Source: Myxococcota bacterium (GTDB lineage Bacteria; Myxococcota_A; UBA9160; SZUA-336). Taken from it: a stretch of DNA of 64,000 bases. Under the pieces are notes generated by a model. It searched no databases, was not told the origin of the DNA, and saw only the letters and a program-made list of their open reading frames with translations. The DNA lies in assembly GCA_040902485.1 (NCBI GenBank), contig JBBDXF010000029.1, forward strand, positions 244,318-308,317, read 5' to 3'. Position 1 is the first letter of the stretch; the number at the start of each line of letters is the position of its first letter. Positions 9,644 through 62,269 of this stretch are shown here, piece after piece. Position numbers and translations under genes: made by a program.

Positions 9644-10515
9644 CAGCCGCGCGTCTTGCGGATCACGCGCTCGGCGTAGCCCTCGAGGTAGCGGCGCTTG
9701 TCCGCGAGCGACGACGTCGGACCGAGCGTGTACAGGAATGGGTAGCTGACGGTGCCGTGCGCGCCCTGGTCTTCGAGCCGGCGCAGCACGTCGGGATCGG
9801 GCGGCGTGGTGAGTGGAACCACGGCTTCGAAGGGCAGCCGCTCGCGGCCGGCCTCGCGCCGCAGCCGCGCGATCTCGCCGAGGATGCGCGACGCCTCGGC
9901 GGGGTCCGAGCCGTTGCCGAGCCAGCCGTCGCCGGAGCGCGCGGCGCGGCGCAGCGCGATGTTGCTCGCGCCACCGACGTAGATCGGCACGGGACGCGCG
10001 GGCGCGGGGCTCATCTGCAGGCGCGGGAAAGCGAAGAAACGCCCCTGGTGCTCGACCATGCCGCCGGCCCACAGCTTGCGCAGCACCGCGATCGACTCGT
10101 CGAAGCGCGCACCGCGGGTTTGGAAGTCGACGCCGAGCTGGTCGAACTCCTCCTTCATCCAGCCCGCGCCCACGCCCAGGATGAATCGACCGCCGGAGAG
10201 CACGTCGAGCGTGGCGGTCGCCTTGGCGACCTCGAGCGGCTGCCGCAGCGGCAGGATGTAGACCATGGTCGCGAAGCGCAGGCGCTTCGTGACCGAGCTC
10301 ATCGCGCCGACCAGCGAGAACGGCTCGGGCCAGGCGGTCTCGGCGCTGAAGCCGGGAACACCGTCCGGTGTGTAGGGATACTTCGAGCGCAGCTGCTCGG
10401 GGAAGAACAGGTGGTCCGAGACCAGGATGCCGTCGAAGCCGACCTCTTCCGCGATCCTGGCGATCTCGACCAGCTGATCGGGCTCGGTGAACGAGACGGC
10501 CTGCCAGAACTTCAT
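9643..10515 (-). CDS. LLM class flavin/F420-dependent oxidoreductase (luciferase-like monooxygenase family)
   Basis: MKFWQAVSFTEPDQLVEIARIAEEVGFDGILVSDHLF is a luciferase-like TIM-barrel signature. ATGA overlap with the upstream secreted-protein gene. Confidence 0.75.
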   Translation of the reverse strand: MKFWQAVSFTEPDQLVEIARIAEEVGFDGILVSDHLFFPEQLRSKYPYTPDGVPGFSAETAWPEPFSLVGAMSSVTKRLRFATMVYILPLRQPLEVAKATATLDVLSGGRFILGVGAGWMKEEFDQLGVDFQTRGARFDESIAVLRKLWAGGMVEHQGRFFAFPRLQMSPAPARPVPIYVGGASNIALRRAARSGDGWLGNGSDPAEASRILGEIARLRREAGRERLPFEAVVPLTTPPDPDVLRRLEDQGAHGTVSYPFLYTLGPTSSLADKRRYLEGYAERVIRKTRG

Positions 10516-46042: not shown

Positions 46043-46329
46043 GCTGAAGCTCCCGGCCGAGGCGATTTCCCCAGCCTACTACAGAGCGTGGATCGATACA
46101 TGAACTAGTGGCGGTAAAATTCGCCCTTGCGGGCGTCGTTCCGCCTCTGCCAAGCGCCGTTCCCACCGACCGACGAACGCGCAACTCCTCGATAAAGCAA
46201 GGGAAAGTGCGATGGAATGCCACCCGGGCGGCAACTTCGAACGGCCCTCTGCACGCTTTCATGACGGTTCGATGGACGAACGATGGGGGTATTCCCAATC
46301 CCCACTTACGGGTTCGCGCCGTCCTGCCG

Positions 46330-47835
46330 ATGTTGCAGCAACCCATGCCCAACTCGCCGCAGCCCGACCCGACCGACCAGCTTCTCGGTCGCGTAGCCGT
46401 CGCCGCCAAGCTGATCAGCATGGAGCAGCTCGCGATCGCGACGCGCGACCAGGGCCGGAAAGGGCTCGCCAAGAGCCTGGGCGAGACGCTCGTCGAGCTC
46501 GGGTTTCTGACGCCGGCGGCGCTCGCCAAGGTGGTCGAGCTGCAGAAGTCGGTGATGGAGAAGGCCAAAGCCAAGCAGGCCTCCGCCGCTGAGCCCGCGC
46601 CTGCCGGCACGCCCAAGGCGCCGACGCCCGCGCGCGAGCTCGGCGTGGAGACCGACGGGCGCGCGATGCGTGCACACGCGCAGTCCGCGGTCGCCTCGGG
46701 CGTCGCGCCCCGCGCCGCCGCGGCGGGACCGGTGCCCGCCAGGTCCGGGCCGACCGGCAATGGACCGATCGCGCTCGATCGCGGCCTCGACAATCTGCTG
46801 ATCGAAGCCTCGGGCCGCCTCGCGAGCGACGTGCACCTGCACAGCGGCGCGAGCCTGCGCGTCCGCGTGCGCGGAGCGCTGGTCGAGGTGCCGGATACGA
46901 AGGTCACGCAGGCCGACGCCGAGCGTCTGATCCTGCCCATGCTCTCCGCCGACGAGAAGGCGCTGCTCGAGGCCAACGGCGAGCTCGACCTCGCCTACAC
47001 CGTGAAGGGCCTCGCCCGCTTCCGCGTGAACGTGTACCGCCAGCTGCGCGGGCTCGACGCGACGCTGCGCCGGATCTCGCTCAAGCCGCCGACGCTGGCC
47101 GATCTGAACCTGCCCAGCGCCTTCGCGAAGTTCACGAACTTCCACCAGGGCATGGTGCTGATCACGGGTCCCTCGGCGTGCGGCAAGTCGTCGACGATGG
47201 CGGCGCTGGTGAATCTGGTGAACGAGGAGCGCGCCGAGCACATCCTGACCGTCGAGGATCCGATCGAGTACCTGCACAGCTCGAAGCGCTGCATCGTGAA
47301 CCAGCGCAACGTCAGGCGTCACACCGAGTCGTTCGCGCGCGCGCTGCGCGCCGCCCTGCGCGAGGACCCGGACGTGATCGTGATCGGCGAGCTGCGCGAC
47401 CGCGAGACCATCTCGCTCGCCATGACCGCCGCCGAGACCGGCCACTTCGTGCTCGCGACGCTGCACACCGACAACGCGGTTCGCACCGTGAACCGGATGA
47501 TCGGCTCGTTCCCGCCCGACCAGCAGGAGCAGGTGCGCGCGATGCTCTCCGAGTCGCTGCGCGCGGTGATCTCGCAGCGGCTGCTGCCGCGCGCGAACGG
47601 GATCGGCATGGTGCCCGCCGTCGAGGTGCTGGTCACCAACCGCGCCGTCGGCAACCTGATCCGCAAGAACGAGACCGTGCAGATCCGCTCGACCATGCAG
47701 ACCGGCGCGGCGCAGGGCATGAACCTGCTCGACATGTCGCTCGCGCAGCTCGTGAAGGCCGGCACGGTGAAGCGCGAGGACGCGCTGATCCACGCCGAAG
47801 ACCCGAAGCTGATCCCGGCGGCTCCGGCGGGATAG
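46330..47835 (+). CDS. PilT/PilU-family type IV pilus retraction ATPase with ~170-aa N-terminal extension (GspE-N/PilB-N-like)
   Basis: Walker A GPSACGKSST, AIRNLIRE-like NLIRKNE, His box. The N-terminus (VAVAAKLISMEQLAIATRDQG…LGFLTPAAL) resembles the T2SSE N-terminal domain. Start may be 46330 or 46345. Confidence 0.75.
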   Translation: MLQQPMPNSPQPDPTDQLLGRVAVAAKLISMEQLAIATRDQGRKGLAKSLGETLVELGFLTPAALAKVVELQKSVMEKAKAKQASAAEPAPAGTPKAPTPARELGVETDGRAMRAHAQSAVASGVAPRAAAAGPVPARSGPTGNGPIALDRGLDNLLIEASGRLASDVHLHSGASLRVRVRGALVEVPDTKVTQADAERLILPMLSADEKALLEANGELDLAYTVKGLARFRVNVYRQLRGLDATLRRISLKPPTLADLNLPSAFAKFTNFHQGMVLITGPSACGKSSTMAALVNLVNEERAEHILTVEDPIEYLHSSKRCIVNQRNVRRHTESFARALRAALREDPDVIVIGELRDRETISLAMTAAETGHFVLATLHTDNAVRTVNRMIGSFPPDQQEQVRAMLSESLRAVISQRLLPRANGIGMVPAVEVLVTNRAVGNLIRKNETVQIRSTMQTGAAQGMNLLDMSLAQLVKAGTVKREDALIHAEDPKLIPAAPAG

Positions 47836-47849
47836 GGACGAGGCAGGCG

Positions 47850-48914
47850 ATGGCACAGATCGACGAGCTGCTCCGCTACTTGAAGCAGCACAAGGGCTCG
47901 GATCTCCACCTGGTGGCCGGCCTCGAGCCGCGCGTGCGCGTGAACGGCGAGCTGCGCGCGATCGAGAAGGCGACACCGCTCGACGACGCCGGCCTGCGCA
48001 AGCTGATGCGCGAGATCATGACCGACGCGCAGTGGCAGACCTTCTCGAGCACGAAAGACCTCGACTTCGCCTACGGGCTGGAGGGCGTGGCGCGCTTCCG
48101 CGCGAACTTCTTCGTGCAGGAGCGCGGCGCGGGCGCCGTGCTGCGCATGATCCCGGAGAAGATCGTGTCGCTCGAGGAGCTGAAGCTCCCGAAGGCGATC
48201 GAAGGGCTCGCGCACCTGCGCAAGGGGCTCGTGCTCGTGACCGGACCGACCGGCTCGGGCAAGTCGACGACGCTCGCCGCGATCATCGACAAGATCAACC
48301 GCACCTACTGCAAGCACATCCTCACGCTCGAGGATCCGATCGAGTTCGTGCACCAGAACGTGAAGAGCGTGATCTCGCATCGCGAGGTCGGCTCGCACAC
48401 CAACGGCTTCGGACCCGGCCTGCGCGGCGCGATCCGCGAGGACACCGACGTCGTGCTGGTCGGTGAGATGCGCGACTACGAGACGATCTCGCTGGCGCTC
48501 ACCGCCGCCGAGATGGGGCTGCTCGTGTTCGGGACGCTCCACACCAACAACGCGCCGAAGACGATCGACCGCATCGTCGACAGTTTCCCCGCCGAGGAGC
48601 AGCAGCAGGCGCGGCTCTCGCTGGCCGAGTCGCTGGCCGCGGTGGTCTCGCAGCTCCTGCTGCCCACTGCCGACGGCAAGGGCCGCGTGGCGGTGAACGA
48701 GATCATGCTCAAGACCAAGGCGCTGCCGAACATCATCCGCGAGGCGAACGTGTCGATGCTCGGCTCGTTCATCCAGCAGGGCAAGCAGGACGGCATGCAG
48801 CTGATGGACGACGCGCTCTTCGAGCTGGTGCAGAGCAAGCGCGTCGCGCCCTACGACGCGTTCATGAAGGCGGGCGACAAGCCGCGCTTCGAGGTCCTGC
48901 TCCCCAAGGAGTGA
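47850..48914 (+). CDS. pilT: twitching motility protein PilT
   Basis: 354 aa. Walker A GPTGSGKSTT, Asp box, His box (TLHTNNAPKTIDRI), and C-terminal GMQLMDDAL. Confidence 0.85.
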   Translation: MAQIDELLRYLKQHKGSDLHLVAGLEPRVRVNGELRAIEKATPLDDAGLRKLMREIMTDAQWQTFSSTKDLDFAYGLEGVARFRANFFVQERGAGAVLRMIPEKIVSLEELKLPKAIEGLAHLRKGLVLVTGPTGSGKSTTLAAIIDKINRTYCKHILTLEDPIEFVHQNVKSVISHREVGSHTNGFGPGLRGAIREDTDVVLVGEMRDYETISLALTAAEMGLLVFGTLHTNNAPKTIDRIVDSFPAEEQQQARLSLAESLAAVVSQLLLPTADGKGRVAVNEIMLKTKALPNIIREANVSMLGSFIQQGKQDGMQLMDDALFELVQSKRVAPYDAFMKAGDKPRFEVLLPKE

Positions 48915-48944: not shown

Positions 48945-49559
48945 ATGGTCGTCCTGAACGTCTGGTCGGACTACCTCTGACCGTGGTGCCACGTCGCAGC
49001 GGTCCGGCTGCGAGGAATCGAGCAGGAGTTCGGCGACACCGTCGAGCTGCGCTGGAAGAGCTTCCTGCTGCGGCCGCGGCCCGAGCCGGGCCGCGACCTC
49101 GAGAAGTTCCGCCGCTACACCGAATCGTGGCGGCGGCCCGCGGAAGAGGAGCCGAGCGCGGTGTTCCGGGTCTGGCAGAGCGACGAGGGACCGCCGTCGC
49201 ACAGCATTCCGGCGCACCTGCTCGCGAAGGCCGCCGCGGCGCTCGGCCGCGACGCGTTCGAGCGCGTGCACCGGGCGCTCTTGCGCGGGTACTTCGAGGA
49301 CAACCGCGACATCTCGAACGCGAAGACGCTGCGGGCGATCTGGCTCGAGCAGGGACTGCCCGAGGGCGAGTTCGCGCGCGCCGACGACCCCGCGCTCCTC
49401 GCGCAGGTCATCGAAGAGCACGACCAGGCGGTCGAGCTCGACGTCGGCGGCGTGCCCGCCGTGCAGATGGAGGGCAGCGACGCCGCCATCACCGGCGCGC
49501 ATCCCGCGGAGCTCTATCGGCGCTGGCTGAAGAAACGACTCACGGAGGAATCGCCATGA
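48945..49559 (+). CDS. DsbA/FrnE-like thiol-disulfide oxidoreductase with in-frame TGA (codon 12) at the first position of the CxxC motif: candidate selenoprotein (UPWC) or disrupted gene
   Basis: ATG at 48945 gives MVVLNVWSDYL-[TGA]-PWCHV…, matching the DsbA N-terminal VxSDxLCPWCY. The same frame continues through EEEPSAVFRVWQSDEG… to the cis-Pro motif GGVPAVQMEG. A 7-bp hairpin (TCGCAGC-GGTCCG-GCTGCGA) lies 13 nt after the TGA. The ORF track shows only a truncated 49161..49559 fragment. Confidence 0.5.
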
Positions 49560-50437
49560 GAATCGGCTTGCAGGTTCCGAGCTTCAGCTGGCCCGGCGGC
49601 GCGGGCGAGATCGGCGCGCGCTTCGCCGAGATCGCGCGCACGGCCGACGACGCCGGCTTCTCGAGCTTCTGGGTCATGGACCACTTCTTCCAGATCCCCA
49701 TGGTGGGACCGGCCGAGCAGGAGATGCTGGAGGGCTACAGCGCGCTCGCATTCGCGGCCGGCGTCACCAAGAGGATCGGTCTCGGAGCGCTGGTCACGGG
49801 CGTCACCTACCGACACCCCGGAGTGTTGGTCAAGACCGCCACCACGCTCGACGTGCTGTCGCGCGGGCGCGCGTACCTGGGCATCGGCGCGGCCTGGTTC
49901 GACCGCGAGCACGCGGGCCTGGGCGTGCCCTTCCCTCCCCTGGCGGAGCGGTTCGAGCGCTTGGAAGAGACGCTGCGCATCGCGCAGCAGATGTGGTCGC
50001 CGGAGAGCGGCCCGTTCCAGGGCAAGCACTACCAGCTCGCCGAAACGCTCTGCTCTCCCCCGCCCGTCTCGAGCCCGCGGCCGAGGATCCTGATCGGGGG
50101 GCTCGGCGAGAAGAAGACGCTGCGCTTGGTCGCGCGCTACGCCGACGCCTGCAACCTGTTCGAGTTCCTCGGCCCCGAGGGCATCGCGAAGAAGCTCGAC
50201 GTGCTGCGCCGCCACTGCGACACCGAGAAGCGCGACTTCGCCTCGATCGAGAAGACGACGCTCGGCACGGTCTGGCTCGCGCCCGGCAAGCACAGCGCGG
50301 CGTCGGTGATCGCGAGCTGTCGCGCGCTCGCCGCGATCGGCGTCGATCAGGCGATCTTCAACCTGCCCAACGTGCACGAGCTCGCGCCGCTCGAGCTGTT
50401 CGGCAAGGAGATCATCCCCGCGCTCGCGGAGCTGTAG
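49556..50437 (+). CDS. LLM class F420/flavin-dependent oxidoreductase (luciferase-like)
   Basis: MRIGLQVPSFSWPGG…FSSFWVMDHFFQ…RIGLGALVTGVTYRHPGVL is a typical luciferase-like TIM barrel. ATGA overlap with the DsbA-like gene. Confidence 0.75.
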   Translation: MRIGLQVPSFSWPGGAGEIGARFAEIARTADDAGFSSFWVMDHFFQIPMVGPAEQEMLEGYSALAFAAGVTKRIGLGALVTGVTYRHPGVLVKTATTLDVLSRGRAYLGIGAAWFDREHAGLGVPFPPLAERFERLEETLRIAQQMWSPESGPFQGKHYQLAETLCSPPPVSSPRPRILIGGLGEKKTLRLVARYADACNLFEFLGPEGIAKKLDVLRRHCDTEKRDFASIEKTTLGTVWLAPGKHSAASVIASCRALAAIGVDQAIFNLPNVHELAPLELFGKEIIPALAEL

Positions 50438-52215: not shown

Positions 52216-52890
52216 CTAGTAGGCGTCGATCGCGTCCTCGGGGAAGACGCCAAGGTAGGCGAGCGCGGCATGCGAGAGCTCCTCGACGAGCGAGACTCCC
52301 GGATTCTCCAGGTTTGCGGTGAGCGGGAACAGCAGCCGCTGCAGCATCACCCCGCCGATCAGCCGGCCGGCGAACGCCGCCGCCACCACGGGGACCGGGT
52401 GCAGGATCTCGTGCCTGCGCGCCACGACCAAGCGCGTGAACAGCTCCTCCATGTGCCGCGACATGCGCAGGCCGCGCGCCTGGAACTCCGCGCTCTCCGT
52501 GGCGCGCACCGCGATCGCGCGCCACAGGCCGGCGTGCTGATCCTGGAGCCGCACCTGGAACGCGACCAGCTCGCGCACGATCTCGCAGATCGACGCGTTC
52601 GCCCAGCGCTGCTCGTTCATCGCGGTGTCGGCGGTGGCGATCGCCTCCTCGATGAAGCGCTCGTGCAGCGCGGAGAGCAGCGCGTCCTTGTCGCGGAAGC
52701 GCGTGTAGAAGGCGCCCACCGAGGAGCCGGCGCGGCGCGCGATCTCGGCGACCGAGGCGTCCTCCCAGCGCTTCTCGCGCAGCAGCGATTCGGCGGCGTC
52801 GAGGATCCGGCCGAGCGTCAGGTGACTGCGCGCCTGCCGTGGAGGGCGGACCCATTCGAGCTCGGTCGGTTGAAGCTGGGGGGCGGCCAT
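52216..52890 (-). CDS. TetR/AcrR family transcriptional regulator
   Basis: HTH LGRILDAAESLLREKRWEDASVAEIARRAGSSVGAFYTRFRDKDALL. Lies downstream of an ACAD gene (FadR-like context). Confidence 0.7.
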   Translation of the reverse strand: MAAPQLQPTELEWVRPPRQARSHLTLGRILDAAESLLREKRWEDASVAEIARRAGSSVGAFYTRFRDKDALLSALHERFIEEAIATADTAMNEQRWANASICEIVRELVAFQVRLQDQHAGLWRAIAVRATESAEFQARGLRMSRHMEELFTRLVVARRHEILHPVPVVAAAFAGRLIGGVMLQRLLFPLTANLENPGVSLVEELSHAALAYLGVFPEDAIDAY

Positions 52891-52996
52891 CTCGCGTCTC
52901 CAATCAGAAAAGGGGTGCCGGAATGAGAATTCCGGTTCTGTTCCGCTTGAATACCCGCGGAGGCCCGCGCCGGTCAAGAGGATTTTCAGCGCCCGG

Positions 52997-54190
52997 TCAG
53001 CGCAGCCCGAAGTCCCAGCCGTCCCCGATCTTGTACGAGCCGAGCACGCGCCGGGCGGTGGTGGTGACGTGCACCTCGTCCGGCCCGTCGTAGATGCGGG
53101 CGAAGCGCGCGTGCCGGTACATCCGCTCGAGCGGCGTGTCTTCGGTGACTCCCTTCGCGCCGAACACCTGGATCGCGCGGTCGATCACGTTGTGCAGCAT
53201 CTGCGCGCCGACCACCTTGATGATGCCGATCTCGACGCGCGCCTCCGTGCCCTGGTCGATCTTGTGCGCGGCGTGCAGCGTGAGCAGCCGGCTTCCTTGA
53301 ATCTCGGCGAGGCTGTCGAAGATGAACTTCTGGATCTGCTGGTGCTGGCCGAGCGTCTTGCCGAACGCGACTCTGGTGTTCGCGCGCTCGCACATCAGGT
53401 CGAACGCGCGCTGCGCCTGACCGAGCCAGCGCATGCAGTGGAAGATGCGGCCCGGGCCGAGCCGCCGCTGTGCGATCTTGAAGCCCGCGCCGCGCGGCCC
53501 GAGCAGGTTCTTGGCCGGCACGCGCACGTCGTCGTACGACACTTCGCAGTGTCCGCCGTGCTGACCCATCACGCGCACGTCGCGCACGATGTTGTAGCCC
53601 GGCGTGTTGGTCGGCACGATGATCATCGAGAACGAGTCGTGCGCGGGCACGTCCGTCTCGGTCTTGCACATCACCGTGGTGTAGGCCGCGCGGTCCGCGC
53701 CGCTGGTGAACCACTTGCGGCCGTTGATCACCCAGGTGTCGCCCTCGAGCACGGCGCGGGTCTGCAGCTGCGTCGGGTCCGAGCTCGCGACGTCGGGCTC
53801 GGTCATGCCGAAGCTCGGGAAGATCTCGCCGTCGACCAGGGGCTTCAGGTACTTGTCGCGCCACTCGTTGTCGGCGAACTCGTGGAGCATGATCGAGTCC
53901 TGCAGCGAGTGCGTGCCGAGCGCGACCATCGCCACGCCCGAGCGGCCCACCACCTCGTTCACGTACACGTAGTCCAGGAACGGCAGCCCCTGCCCGCCGA
54001 TCTCCTTGGGGTGCCCGAGCGCCCACAGCCCCTCTTCCTTGGCTTCCTGCATCAGCCGCCGCATGGCGTCGCGGCCCTCCGTGGAGTCGCGGTCTTCGAT
54101 CAGCGGCTCGACCGGGTAGCAGCGCTCCTCGACGAAACGCTCGACGCGCGCGCGGATCGGCTTCACGTGCTCGGGGACTTCGAAGCTCAT
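52997..54190 (-). CDS. acyl-CoA dehydrogenase (FadE-like)
   Basis: FGMTEPDVASSDP…WVINGRKWFTSGA… and a C-terminal FGAKGVTEDTPLERMYRHARFARIYDGPDEVH. Start at MSFEVPEHVK. Confidence 0.8.
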   Translation of the reverse strand: MSFEVPEHVKPIRARVERFVEERCYPVEPLIEDRDSTEGRDAMRRLMQEAKEEGLWALGHPKEIGGQGLPFLDYVYVNEVVGRSGVAMVALGTHSLQDSIMLHEFADNEWRDKYLKPLVDGEIFPSFGMTEPDVASSDPTQLQTRAVLEGDTWVINGRKWFTSGADRAAYTTVMCKTETDVPAHDSFSMIIVPTNTPGYNIVRDVRVMGQHGGHCEVSYDDVRVPAKNLLGPRGAGFKIAQRRLGPGRIFHCMRWLGQAQRAFDLMCERANTRVAFGKTLGQHQQIQKFIFDSLAEIQGSRLLTLHAAHKIDQGTEARVEIGIIKVVGAQMLHNVIDRAIQVFGAKGVTEDTPLERMYRHARFARIYDGPDEVHVTTTARRVLGSYKIGDGWDFGLR

Positions 54191-54283
54191 GGCGGTGGGG
54201 TGCTCCTCTCGAAGGGGCACCCAGCGTATTCCCCGCGCCCGGGGCTGGGCAAGCGATGGGCTTTGGGCTACCCAACGCGTCGA

Positions 54284-56653
54284 ATGGCGACCCCAGCCAC
54301 CCCTGCCTGGCGGGAAGGCAGCAAGCTCGTCCACCCCTTCAATCCCGAGCTTGGGGTGGGACTCGTTCGGCGCGTCGAAGGCCGGTATCTCGTGGTGTAC
54401 TTCCCGGCCGTCGAGCGCGAGGTGACGCTGGCCGCGCAGGGCGCGGGGCTCACGCCGCTGATCCTGCCGCCGGGGTCGCTCGCGGTGGAGCTCGAGGCCG
54501 GCCGCGAGGTGCGGATCGACCGCTGGGACGGCGACGCGTACCTGCTGGCCGACGGGCGGCGCGTGCCGGACGCGGAGCTGTGGCCGGTCGAGGGCAACGC
54601 CGGACCGATCGAGCGGCTGGCGCTGTTCAAGCTCGATCGGCTCGGCTCGTGGCGCAACCGCGTCGACGGCCTGCAGCTGCGGCGCGTGCGCGAGGCCGGC
54701 GGGCTCGGCTCGTTCCTGGGCGGGCGCATCAGCCTGTTCCCACACCAGCTCCACACGGCGCTCGCGGCGGTGCGCATGGATCCGGTGCGCTGGCTGCTCG
54801 CCGACGAGGTGGGGCTCGGCAAGACGATCATGGCCTGCCTCACGCTGTCGGCGCTGGTGCGCACCGGCCGCGCGTCGCGGGCGCTGGTGATCGCGCCGTC
54901 GACGCTCACCGTGCAGTGGCTGGGCGAGCTGTACCGCAAGTTCCACCAGGTGTTCGTGCTGCTCGACGAGGCGCGCATCGAGAGCGTCGAGCGCGACTAC
55001 GGCGAGGGCAACAACCCCTTCGACGTGCACCCGTTCGGTGTGATCTCGATGGAGGAGCTGGCGGCCGACCCGTCTTTGGCGCGCAAGGCGCGGCAGGTCG
55101 ATCTGGATCTCGTGGTCGTCGACGAGGCGCACCGGCTCGCGCTCGAGGACGTGGACGCGGCGATCGCGCCGCTGGTCGCGCGCGCGAAGCACGCGATCCT
55201 GCTCTCGGCGACGCCGCTGCAGGCGGACCGGCGCGGCTTCTTCCACCTGCTCCAGCTGCTGCATCCGGACCGCTTCCCCGCCTTCGACGCGTTCGACGCG
55301 GCGGTCTCCGAGGGGCGGGCGACGTTCCCGTGCACCAGCGCCGTGCGCCGCGCCGATCTCGGCGGGCTGCCGCCGCGGCGGCCGGTGCCGATCGACCTCG
55401 GCCCCGCGATGAAGGACCCGAAGAAGGATCCACGCGCCGAGTGGCTGACCCGGAACGTGCGCGCCTGGCACGAGCAGAAGGAGAAGGCGCTGGTCTTCGT
55501 GCACGACGTCGAGCGGCTCGAGAAGCTGCGCAAGCAGCTCGAGACCGCCGCGCACCTACACGTCGCGGTGTTCCACGAGGCGCTGACCGCGGCGCAGCGC
55601 GCCCTCGAGGTCGCGCGCTTCCGCGAGACGAACCTGCCCGTGCTGCTGTGCACCGAAGCCGCGACCGAGGGCCGCAACTTCCAGTTCTGCGATCGCATGG
55701 TCCACTACGACCTGCCGCTCGATCCGGTCGCGCTCGAGCAGCGCATCGGGCGGCTCGACCGAATCGGCCGCAGCAAGGACGTCGAGATCGTCTACTTCCG
55801 CTGCGAGCGCTCGAAGCCCGACGTGGCGAGCCTGTACGAGCGGCTCGATCTGTTCGCGCGCCCGTCGGCCGGGCTCGACCTCGCGCTCTCCGGCGTGCGC
55901 GACGCGCTCGAGCGCGCCGAGCGCGAAGGCGAAGCCGTCGACGAGGAGGCGCTGGTCGCTTCGATCGAAGCCGCGCGCGCGAAGACGATCGCCGACATCC
56001 CGCGCGTGCTCTACCAGGACGCCTACGAAGCAAAGCAGGCCGAGAAGATCCTCGCGCTGGTGCCGCCCGAGCTGGAGCACCTGACGCGGCGCTACTCGCT
56101 CGGCGCGGCCAACGACCTGGGGCTCAAGATCGTCGACAAGGGCGGCACCGCGCTCTACTACCTCGAGCTCGGCACGTCGCTCACCGTGGAGTCGATCCCG
56201 GGCGTGCCCGACGAGAGCCGCTGGCTCGGCACCTTCGACCGCGTCGAGGCCTTGCAGAAGGACGAGTTCGACTTCTTCGCCAACGGCCACCCGCTGGTCG
56301 AGGGGCTGCTGCTCGAGCTGGAGGACGGCGCGCGCGGCCGCACGGCCATGTTCACGGTGCCCTCGCCCGATCTGCGCGGCGCCGGCGTGATCTGCATCTT
56401 CAAGGACGGCGCGACCCTGCAGCCGGTCGTGTTCGACACCAAGGGCGAGCACCGCCCCGAGTGGGCACCCGTGATAATCGAGTCGCTGGGACGCGCGCGG
56501 CCCGCCAAGCCCGAGGAGCTCAAGCTCGACGCGCGCGCGGCGGACGGCATTCGCGAGCTCGGCAGCATGTGCGAGCTCGAGGTGGCCGAGACGGCGGTGC
56601 TCGAGTGCGCCGCGTTCTTCCGTTTCGTGCCGGACGAGGCGGTCGCCGCCTAG
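54284..56653 (+). CDS. SNF2/RapA-like superfamily 2 helicase
   Basis: LFPHQL (Q motif), LADEVGLGKT (motif I), DEAHRL (motif II), SATP, and helicase-C motifs (…LLCTEAATEGRNFQ…QRIGRLDRIGR). Confidence 0.75.
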   Translation: MATPATPAWREGSKLVHPFNPELGVGLVRRVEGRYLVVYFPAVEREVTLAAQGAGLTPLILPPGSLAVELEAGREVRIDRWDGDAYLLADGRRVPDAELWPVEGNAGPIERLALFKLDRLGSWRNRVDGLQLRRVREAGGLGSFLGGRISLFPHQLHTALAAVRMDPVRWLLADEVGLGKTIMACLTLSALVRTGRASRALVIAPSTLTVQWLGELYRKFHQVFVLLDEARIESVERDYGEGNNPFDVHPFGVISMEELAADPSLARKARQVDLDLVVVDEAHRLALEDVDAAIAPLVARAKHAILLSATPLQADRRGFFHLLQLLHPDRFPAFDAFDAAVSEGRATFPCTSAVRRADLGGLPPRRPVPIDLGPAMKDPKKDPRAEWLTRNVRAWHEQKEKALVFVHDVERLEKLRKQLETAAHLHVAVFHEALTAAQRALEVARFRETNLPVLLCTEAATEGRNFQFCDRMVHYDLPLDPVALEQRIGRLDRIGRSKDVEIVYFRCERSKPDVASLYERLDLFARPSAGLDLALSGVRDALERAEREGEAVDEEALVASIEAARAKTIADIPRVLYQDAYEAKQAEKILALVPPELEHLTRRYSLGAANDLGLKIVDKGGTALYYLELGTSLTVESIPGVPDESRWLGTFDRVEALQKDEFDFFANGHPLVEGLLLELEDGARGRTAMFTVPSPDLRGAGVICIFKDGATLQPVVFDTKGEHRPEWAPVIIESLGRARPAKPEELKLDARAADGIRELGSMCELEVAETAVLECAAFFRFVPDEAVAA

Positions 56654-61754: not shown

Positions 61755-61789
61755 CGAGTGACTCCCTCCGCGGAGAGCGGGACTCCCAT

Positions 61790-61965
61790 CCCGATCACTC
61801 GGCAGGTCTCCTGGCTCAGGGGTCTGGCGCCGGAATCGAGCCTTCCCCGGGATCGCTCCCGAGTGGCGTCTTTCGATCCGACTCCCCCATCACAGTGGCG
61901 GGACCGCGGCCGATTTTCACGGCCTTCCCTCTTAGGTCCGCGACGCGGACACCGAGTGCCGCCAT
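61790..61965 (-). ncRNA. cobalamin (B12) riboswitch in the 5' leader of the BtuB-like receptor
   Basis: The minus-strand read contains AGGGAAGGCCGTGAAAATCGGCCGCGGTCCCGCCACTGTGATGGG (GGGAA…GGTG.AA..CC…CCCGCCACTG B12 box) and the 3' AGCCAGGAGACCTGCC element. Ends about 40 nt before the receptor start. Confidence 0.7.
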
Positions 61966-62059
61966 CGGTATCACCCGCTGCGCAACGCTGTCAACCTCTT
62001 CAAGCACTTGACGTCGGGGCTTGACGTGTCGGCGGCGAGCGCGTACTTCTCGCCACGTA

Positions 62060-62225
62060 CGAGTCGCGGAAGGTGTCGGGAAGCCGGTGTGAATCCGGCG
62101 CGAGCCCGTCGCTGTAACCGGGGACGAACGCCGCACTCCGAGCCATCGGAGCGGAGCCACTGGGATCGCAGGATCCTGGGAAGGCGCGGCGTGAGGACGA
62201 TCCGGGAGCCAGAAGACCGGCCTTC
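62060..62225 (+). ncRNA. cobalamin (B12) riboswitch in the 5' leader of the PEP-CTERM protein gene
   Basis: The plus-strand read contains GGGAAGCCGGTGTGAATCCGGCGCGAGCCCG…, the B12 box GCCACTGGGA, and the 3' AGCCAGAAGACCGGCC. Followed by AAAGGAA and the ATG at 62270. Upstream TTGACG-N17-TACTTC is a plausible promoter. Confidence 0.7.
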
Positions 62226-62269
62226 CGCAGGGAAAGAAAACTTCTCCGGCAGCGAGAAAGGAATCCACC

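Follow-up and report, generated by a model that had tools for sequence, protein, structure and literature searches.

Selenoproteins of the DsbA-like type, with selenocysteine (Sec) in the first position of a UxxC motif (COG2761, PF01323), were first described in 2005, when nine sequences were reported from the Sargasso Sea metagenome (PMC1088965). They were subsequently listed for Anaeromyxobacter dehalogenans, Desulfovibrio desulfuricans and Desulfotomaculum reducens (PMC1794560), and had been counted in 41 organisms by 2016 (PMC5029168). A 2026 review names them as 'DsbA-like protein form 1' (PMC13188914).

Here we analyse a DsbA-like gene with an in-frame TGA, found in a 64-kb stretch of DNA (the whole of which is referred to as the window). 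An earlier note on this DNA had proposed that the gene encodes a selenoprotein missed by open reading frame calling and had placed it in an established bacterial family; the four reports above bear out the latter statement. The window gene shares with DsbA-like form 1 the PF01323 domain, a UxxC motif with Sec first, the widespread occurrence of Cys homologs and a SECIS hairpin located just 3' of the UGA. The carriers of the window family differ, being uncultured and mostly soil MAGs. We infer that the window gene belongs to the same subfamily as published form 1 members (e.g. NIP15863.1). It is a previously undescribed member of a known DsbA-like selenoprotein family, and neither a new class of system nor a new mechanism is involved. 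UGA-12 very probably encodes Sec, making this a genuine DsbA/FrnE-like selenoprotein gene as far as can be judged from sequence comparison.

Results

A DsbA-like gene interrupted by TGA

The gene and its surrounding features are listed in Table 1. The frame opens with MVVLNVWSDYL, meets the TGA and continues as PWCHVAAVRLRG, and the next stop is found only at the end of the gene. This is exactly the frame described in the earlier note (204 codons from the ATG, with a single internal TGA), and the GGVPAVQMEG motif to which that note had assigned the cis-Pro of a thioredoxin fold is present at residues 168-177. In a window of 70% GC, GC3 reaches 1.0 over the 15 codons before the TGA and 0.92 after it. 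The first in-frame ATG, GTG or TTG past the TGA is the GTG at 49161 (codon 73), which gives rise to a 132-aa ORF in the mechanical list. Public gene calls for relatives with TGA at the same codon (here termed Sec forms) also begin 3' of the TGA, and the splitting of the gene by ORF finders is thus as had been claimed. These public calls are truncated to 177 aa (P0093), 163 aa (P0115) and 185 aa (P0042); their start points differ between loci, are non-homologous and all lie downstream of the redox motif.

Table 1 Features of the DsbA-like gene and of the remainder of the window
Feature	Position	Strand	Remarks
PilT/PilU ATPase, first of tandem pair	46108-47835	+	N-terminal extension of ~225 aa
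PilT/PilU family ATPase, upstream, second of tandem pair	47850-48914	+	Context only
Candidate selenoprotein CDS, DsbA/FrnE-like	48945-49559	+	Complete; 204 codons including proposed Sec-12; stop TGA 49557-49559
In-frame TGA, proposed Sec codon, residue 12	48978-48980	+	First position of U-P-W-C motif (48978-48989)
SECIS-like hairpin, within CDS	48994-49013	+	Stem 48994-49000 / 49007-49013; loop GGUCCG 49001-49006
cis-Pro loop, Val170-Pro171 of GGVPAV, thioredoxin fold	49452-49457	+	G169, V170, P171 and A172 invariant in homolog protein alignment
F420-dependent LLM-class oxidoreductase (TIGR03560), downstream	49556-50437	+	ATG overlaps stop of the DsbA-like gene (ATGA, 49556-49559)
Overlapping antisense ORF, plus strand	52874-56653	+	1260 codons between stops; high GC3
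Overlapping antisense ORF, minus strand	52997-55555	-	853 codons between stops; high GC3
Cobalamin riboswitch (RF00174), full-length	61784-61971	-	121 bits
Cobalamin riboswitch (RF00174), full-length	62054-62239	+	92 bits

With the TGA read as Cys, the Pfam DSBA profile (PF01323) matches residues 4-192 (E=1.5e-20; 74.2 bits against a cutoff of 25.6), spanning the TGA and covering profile positions 2-187 of 191. The nearest solved structures by sequence are Deinococcus radiodurans FrnE (E=1.4e-11) and SCO1869. An AF2 model of P0001, a Cys homolog 86% identical to the window protein, is confident (pLDDT 93.7) and has a strand at residues 2-8 directly preceding a helix at residues 13-32, with the redox motif placed between the two. 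When compared with the PDB using Foldseek, the P0001 model is closest to FrnE (5cnw, TM 0.82), followed by SCO1869, YjbH and the cytosolic reductase DsbM, and then by the classical DsbAs. The C/U-P-W-C motif is invariant across 74 homologous loci and the window, and the second Cys of this motif (C15) is the one cysteine of the window protein. A signal peptide is absent at the N-terminus, strand 1 beginning at residue 2.

Homologs are named 'predicted DsbA family dithiol-disulfide isomerase' by JGI, which we take to be the product name of COG2761. A search of NCBIfam found no selenoprotein model for the family and only a weak match to NF008198 (16 bits against a cutoff of 279); the gene goes unannotated because such a model is absent. 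The predicted product is a cytoplasmic DsbA-family (FrnE/COG2761-type) thiol-disulfide oxidoreductase of 204 residues, which appears more likely to act as a cytoplasmic reductase or isomerase than as a periplasmic oxidase.

The TGA codon is conserved among relatives

A protein search yielded ~1000 homologs, the close ones mostly of full length with CPWC, together with several truncated calls. DNA was obtained for the truncated calls P0093, P0115 and P0042, in the form of four metagenome contigs (L001-L004), and TGA was found at the same codon in all four, following a conserved MVVLNVWSDYL or PVVLHVWSDYL. A scan using one genome per species provided a further 70 loci, all from uncultured MAGs, labelled mainly Myxococcota or 'Deltaproteobacteria' and also Binatia, Thermoanaerobaculia, Acidobacteria and a few others. 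TGA is present in 15 of the 70, from several phyla (L005, L006, L008, L010, L019, L022, L028, L029, L032, L042, L044, L045, L057, L070 and L072), with L005 being 85% identical to the window; the remaining 55 have TGT or TGC. Including the window and the four metagenome contigs, the Sec forms total 20, and the WSDYL-U-PWC context is kept across phyla.

The position assigned to the TGA in the earlier note, at the first Cys of CPWC, holds in this alignment with the Cys homologs: the column is TGT or TGC at the 55 genome loci and corresponds to Cys in the closest protein matches. The concern raised alongside it, that a TGA unique to this locus would indicate a nonsense mutation or sequencing error, is answered by the 19 other loci sharing TGA at the same codon.

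In L001, L002, L005 and L006, the 11 codons preceding the TGA differ from those of the window by synonymous changes only, leaving MVVLNVWSDYL unchanged. The upstream segment is thus translated in frame with the rest, and both flanks of the UGA are under purifying selection. At gene junctions elsewhere in the window, TGA acts as a normal stop, and it follows that the codon is not reassigned genome-wide; a GC3-guided scan of the window identifies the TGA at 48978 as the sole credible in-frame case.

A covarying hairpin follows the UGA

The hairpin described in the earlier note is present as stated, with a 7-bp stem starting 13 nt past the UGA and a GGUCCG loop starting at 20 nt, and its spacing is compatible with a SECIS. 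Published bSECIS constraints comprise a loop of 3-9 nt, a stem of 4-16 bp, a G in the first two loop positions, a distance from UGA to loop of 16-37 nt and an MFE at or below -7.5 kcal/mol (PMC13188914). The window hairpin lies within all of these limits, with a 6-nt loop starting GGU, a 7-bp stem, a UGA-to-loop distance of 20 nt and a folding energy of -12.3 kcal/mol when folded alone. The fold of a single 66-nt sequence does not differ significantly from shuffles (z = -0.47), and 105 of the 1035 TGA trinucleotides in the window (~10%) are followed by a SECIS-like hairpin whose stem is 7 bp or longer. The hairpin alone is therefore not evidence, and support has to come from the relatives. An Rfam scan returned no family at the 48945-49559 locus.

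A fixed register is found in all 20 Sec forms, with nt +14 to +20 after the UGA paired with nt +27 to +33. The Sec forms keep 5-7 of the 7 register pairs (mean 6.4), as compared with a mean of 3.0 for the 46 Cys forms scored, the other 9 of the 55 having been recognised later (Mann-Whitney p=1e-9, a value that ignores kinship between sequences). The proportion of paired cells is 90.5% among the 18 distinct Sec sequences and falls to 21-48% if the 3' partner is shifted by 1-3 columns. Two-sided changes occur in four of the seven pairs (U-A/A-U, C-G/U-A, G-C/A-U and C-G/A-U), and the covariation score was reached by none of 500 shuffles. In L070, for example, CGA has become CAA on the 3' arm, which replaces Arg with Gln, and the matching change on the 5' arm, from GTC to GTT, is synonymous. 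Over the hairpin, the encoded amino acids are a near-fixed V-R-L-R in the Sec forms and freely variable in the Cys forms, a pattern expected when an RNA element constrains the coding region.

The nearest Cys forms, L077 (86%) and L078/L079 (80%), retain the VAAVRL sequence; synonymous changes have nonetheless reduced the register to 4 of 7 pairs, as counted manually from the sequences. Local folds of L077-L079 amount to -7.9 to -10.0 kcal/mol and use other registers, compared with -12.4 to -15.3 kcal/mol for close Sec forms. Across the aligned loci, the hairpin is conserved, covaries and is specific to the UGA forms. The earlier note had made its reading depend on a SECIS-like structure conserved among homologs, and such a structure is found in fixed register in 20 of 20 Sec forms, covarying, and largely absent from Cys forms.

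Three Cys forms still fold well in this region, L020 and L074 in the Sec register and L027 in another. L020 and L074 (TGC; about 10031-10070) have 7 of 7 and 6 of 7 Sec-register pairs intact and may be recent Sec-to-Cys conversions.

Sec and Cys forms are interleaved

A neighbour-joining tree of 67 proteins has Sec and Cys forms interleaved throughout, indicating repeated Sec/Cys interconversion, as has been described for bacterial selenoproteins (PMC1794560). Within the window's clade, the window and L005 (both Sec) group with L077 (Cys), and L002 (Sec) groups with L078 (Cys). As a separate observation, the Cys form L068 (about 10070-10130) contains a tandem in-frame duplication of nine residues, with RLRDEFEGR occurring twice just after helix 1.

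Sec machinery and further selenoprotein genes

tRNA-Sec was not found by ARAGORN in the window or in 16 Sec-form loci. A tblastn search with E. coli SelA, SelB and SelD identified no selA, selB or selD in the window or in the ~1.2 Mb of DNA obtained around the related loci; the sole match was to SelB residues 3-159 (the N-terminal part), in L023. In a scan of this flanking DNA for in-frame TGA codons, the candidates were gene junctions or unconvincing open frames, and none was credible as a second selenoprotein gene. The conserved UGA and SECIS would imply that the organism of the window is able to decode Sec. This is consistent with Anaeromyxobacter dehalogenans, a member of the Myxococcota for which both the Sec trait and a DsbA-like selenoprotein are documented (PMC1794560).

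Gene neighbourhood

The order PilT-PilT-DsbA-LLM is restricted to the window's own clade, where it is found for Sec and Cys forms alike; a convergent MgtE is also among the neighbours. Because synteny is confined to this clade, the neighbours do not define the function of the DsbA-like gene, and the neighbourhood was rejected as a functional clue. The extension of the first PilT/PilU ATPase contains an MshE-like motif for c-di-GMP binding that scores below threshold (NF053729, 34.6 bits; cutoff 38). Close Sec and Cys forms retain the pairing of the DsbA-like gene with the LLM gene, although L006 lacks the latter. The ATGA overlap suggests that the LLM gene could be translationally coupled to an upstream partner that itself would need inefficient Sec decoding.

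Four distant Sec-form loci, with a neighbourhood unlike that of the window, have a tRNA-Leu(GAG) on the opposite strand 0.1-6 kb 3' of the DsbA-like gene (L019 4118-4204, L029 12055-12142, L032 16447-16533 and L044 10024-10110, the last being the closest). Further along the window, the two cobalamin riboswitches point apart with ~80 nt between them, and each presumably controls a divergent B12-related operon. Of the two overlapping antisense ORFs, the minus-strand one has an acyl-CoA dehydrogenase domain match in its C-terminal ~390 aa only; this minus-strand ORF is probably over-extended owing to the high GC.

Discussion

The proposal that this gene encodes a selenoprotein is supported by the conserved TGA, by the Sec/Cys alignment and by a covarying hairpin specific to the TGA forms. 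Decoding of UGA codon 12 as Sec would place a redox centre, U-P-W-C, at the N-terminal end of helix 1. The 20-nt in-CDS hairpin is expected to act as a bacterial SECIS, its apical loop being bound by SelB loaded with Sec-tRNA(Sec) as the ribosome reaches the UGA. By analogy with the family, Sec-12 would be a solvent-exposed nucleophile forming a selenenylsulfide with Cys-15, the only Cys available, and this would be resolved by a thiol reductant.

The TGA could instead have arisen by a single-base hit on a TGC/TGT Cys codon, through nonsense mutation, pseudogene formation or an error of sequencing or assembly. TGC and TGT are indeed one substitution away from TGA, the closest protein matches P0001 (86%) and P0002 (80%) have Cys, and Sec machinery is not seen in the window or in the ~1.2 Mb of DNA around the related loci. 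However, 19 further loci, independent and drawn from different samples and species, share this TGA, the codon is flanked on either side by sequence with coding conservation and high GC3, and a covarying hairpin specific to TGA forms is not expected of a recurrent error or a decaying pseudogene. Together these observations effectively refute an origin by mutation or error, which we regard as scarcely credible. It is similarly hard to believe that the UGA is a true stop and that the product is a peptide of 11 residues, a protein that starts downstream and lacks its N-terminus, or both, even though automated pipelines do call such ORFs (P0093, P0115 and P0042). The window offers no in-frame ATG, GTG or TTG between the TGA and codon 73, and any restart would yield a protein without strand 1, redox motif or helix 1, and in the case of the window also without strand 2, according to the P0001 model. 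The differing, non-homologous positions at which the truncated calls begin also argue against a genuine restart, as does the peptide preceding the TGA, which corresponds to conserved strand-1 sequence and is present in Cys forms too.

Recoding of the UGA as something other than Sec, either by hairpin-stimulated near-cognate read-through (inserting Trp or Cys) or by insertion of Cys, deserves consideration, given that Sec insertion is deduced indirectly and that read-through might in principle be favoured by a hairpin past the UGA. This appears very unlikely when set against the position of the codon, at the catalytic Cys of CxxC in a typical Sec/Cys pair, where Trp would kill the enzyme. The hairpin is moreover within all bSECIS constraints, with a GGUC loop start and spacing that resemble E. 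coli fdhF, and the family is documented as a selenoprotein in Sec-using bacteria that include a Myxococcota member (PMC1794560). Decoding as Sec is thus the reading we adopt.

For annotation, the consequence is that public gene calls cut short both this gene and its Sec-form relatives. With TGA in 15 of 70 species, about one in five species of the family is probably mis-annotated at this gene. The short-distance interchange of Sec and Cys is well supported: the hairpin is kept by compensatory changes for as long as the codon is UGA and is eroded by synonymous changes after it becomes UGC, making the life-cycle of a SECIS visible. The gene illustrates cleanly how a SECIS is maintained and how it decays, albeit in a way that will not surprise a specialist.

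A broader interpretation is offered tentatively, as a possibility that we judge somewhat less likely than its converse. The gene may mark Sec use in uncultured, largely soil lineages (MAGs labelled Myxococcota, Binatia, Thermoanaerobaculia and other Acidobacteria) that lie outside the well-described groups rich in selenoproteins. Sister species would flip repeatedly between Sec and Cys, and after a switch to Cys the SECIS would decay by synonymous changes alone. If true, the family would be a compact natural system in which losses and gains of Sec could be dated and related to selenium supply, and it would also provide a minimal SECIS of 20 nt whose GGUC loop is like that of E. coli.

Comparison with known systems

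The E. coli fdhF SECIS is likewise an in-CDS hairpin, with a GGUC loop located 18 nt past the UGA, compared with 20 nt for the GGUCCG loop of the window. In contrast to fdhF, the window family conserves a shorter single stem, and the window hairpin lacks a bulged U on the 5' side. L001, L008, L010 and L019 may instead adopt a fold in which the loop is 3 nt long and a U bulges out on the 3' side.

At the protein level, the periplasmic DsbA of E. coli (PF01323) has in common with the window protein a thioredoxin fold with a helical insertion, a CxxC-type motif and the V-cisPro loop. The window protein differs in being devoid of a signal peptide and in having UPWC rather than CPHC. A closer resemblance is found with D. 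radiodurans FrnE (5cnw/5cp1), a cytoplasmic DsbA-like disulfide oxidoreductase to which SCO1869, Pseudomonas aeruginosa DsbM and YjbH are related. In FrnE, the CxxC motif also directly follows strand 1 and there is no signal peptide. However, FrnE uses Cys rather than Sec, is ~50 residues longer and shares an identity of only ~24% with the window protein. Its C-terminal tail contains Cys-239 (5cp1 being the C239S mutant), whereas the window protein ends at residue 204, and the FrnE-type tail with a second Cys pair is absent. The window protein is therefore FrnE-like in fold and not an ortholog of FrnE.
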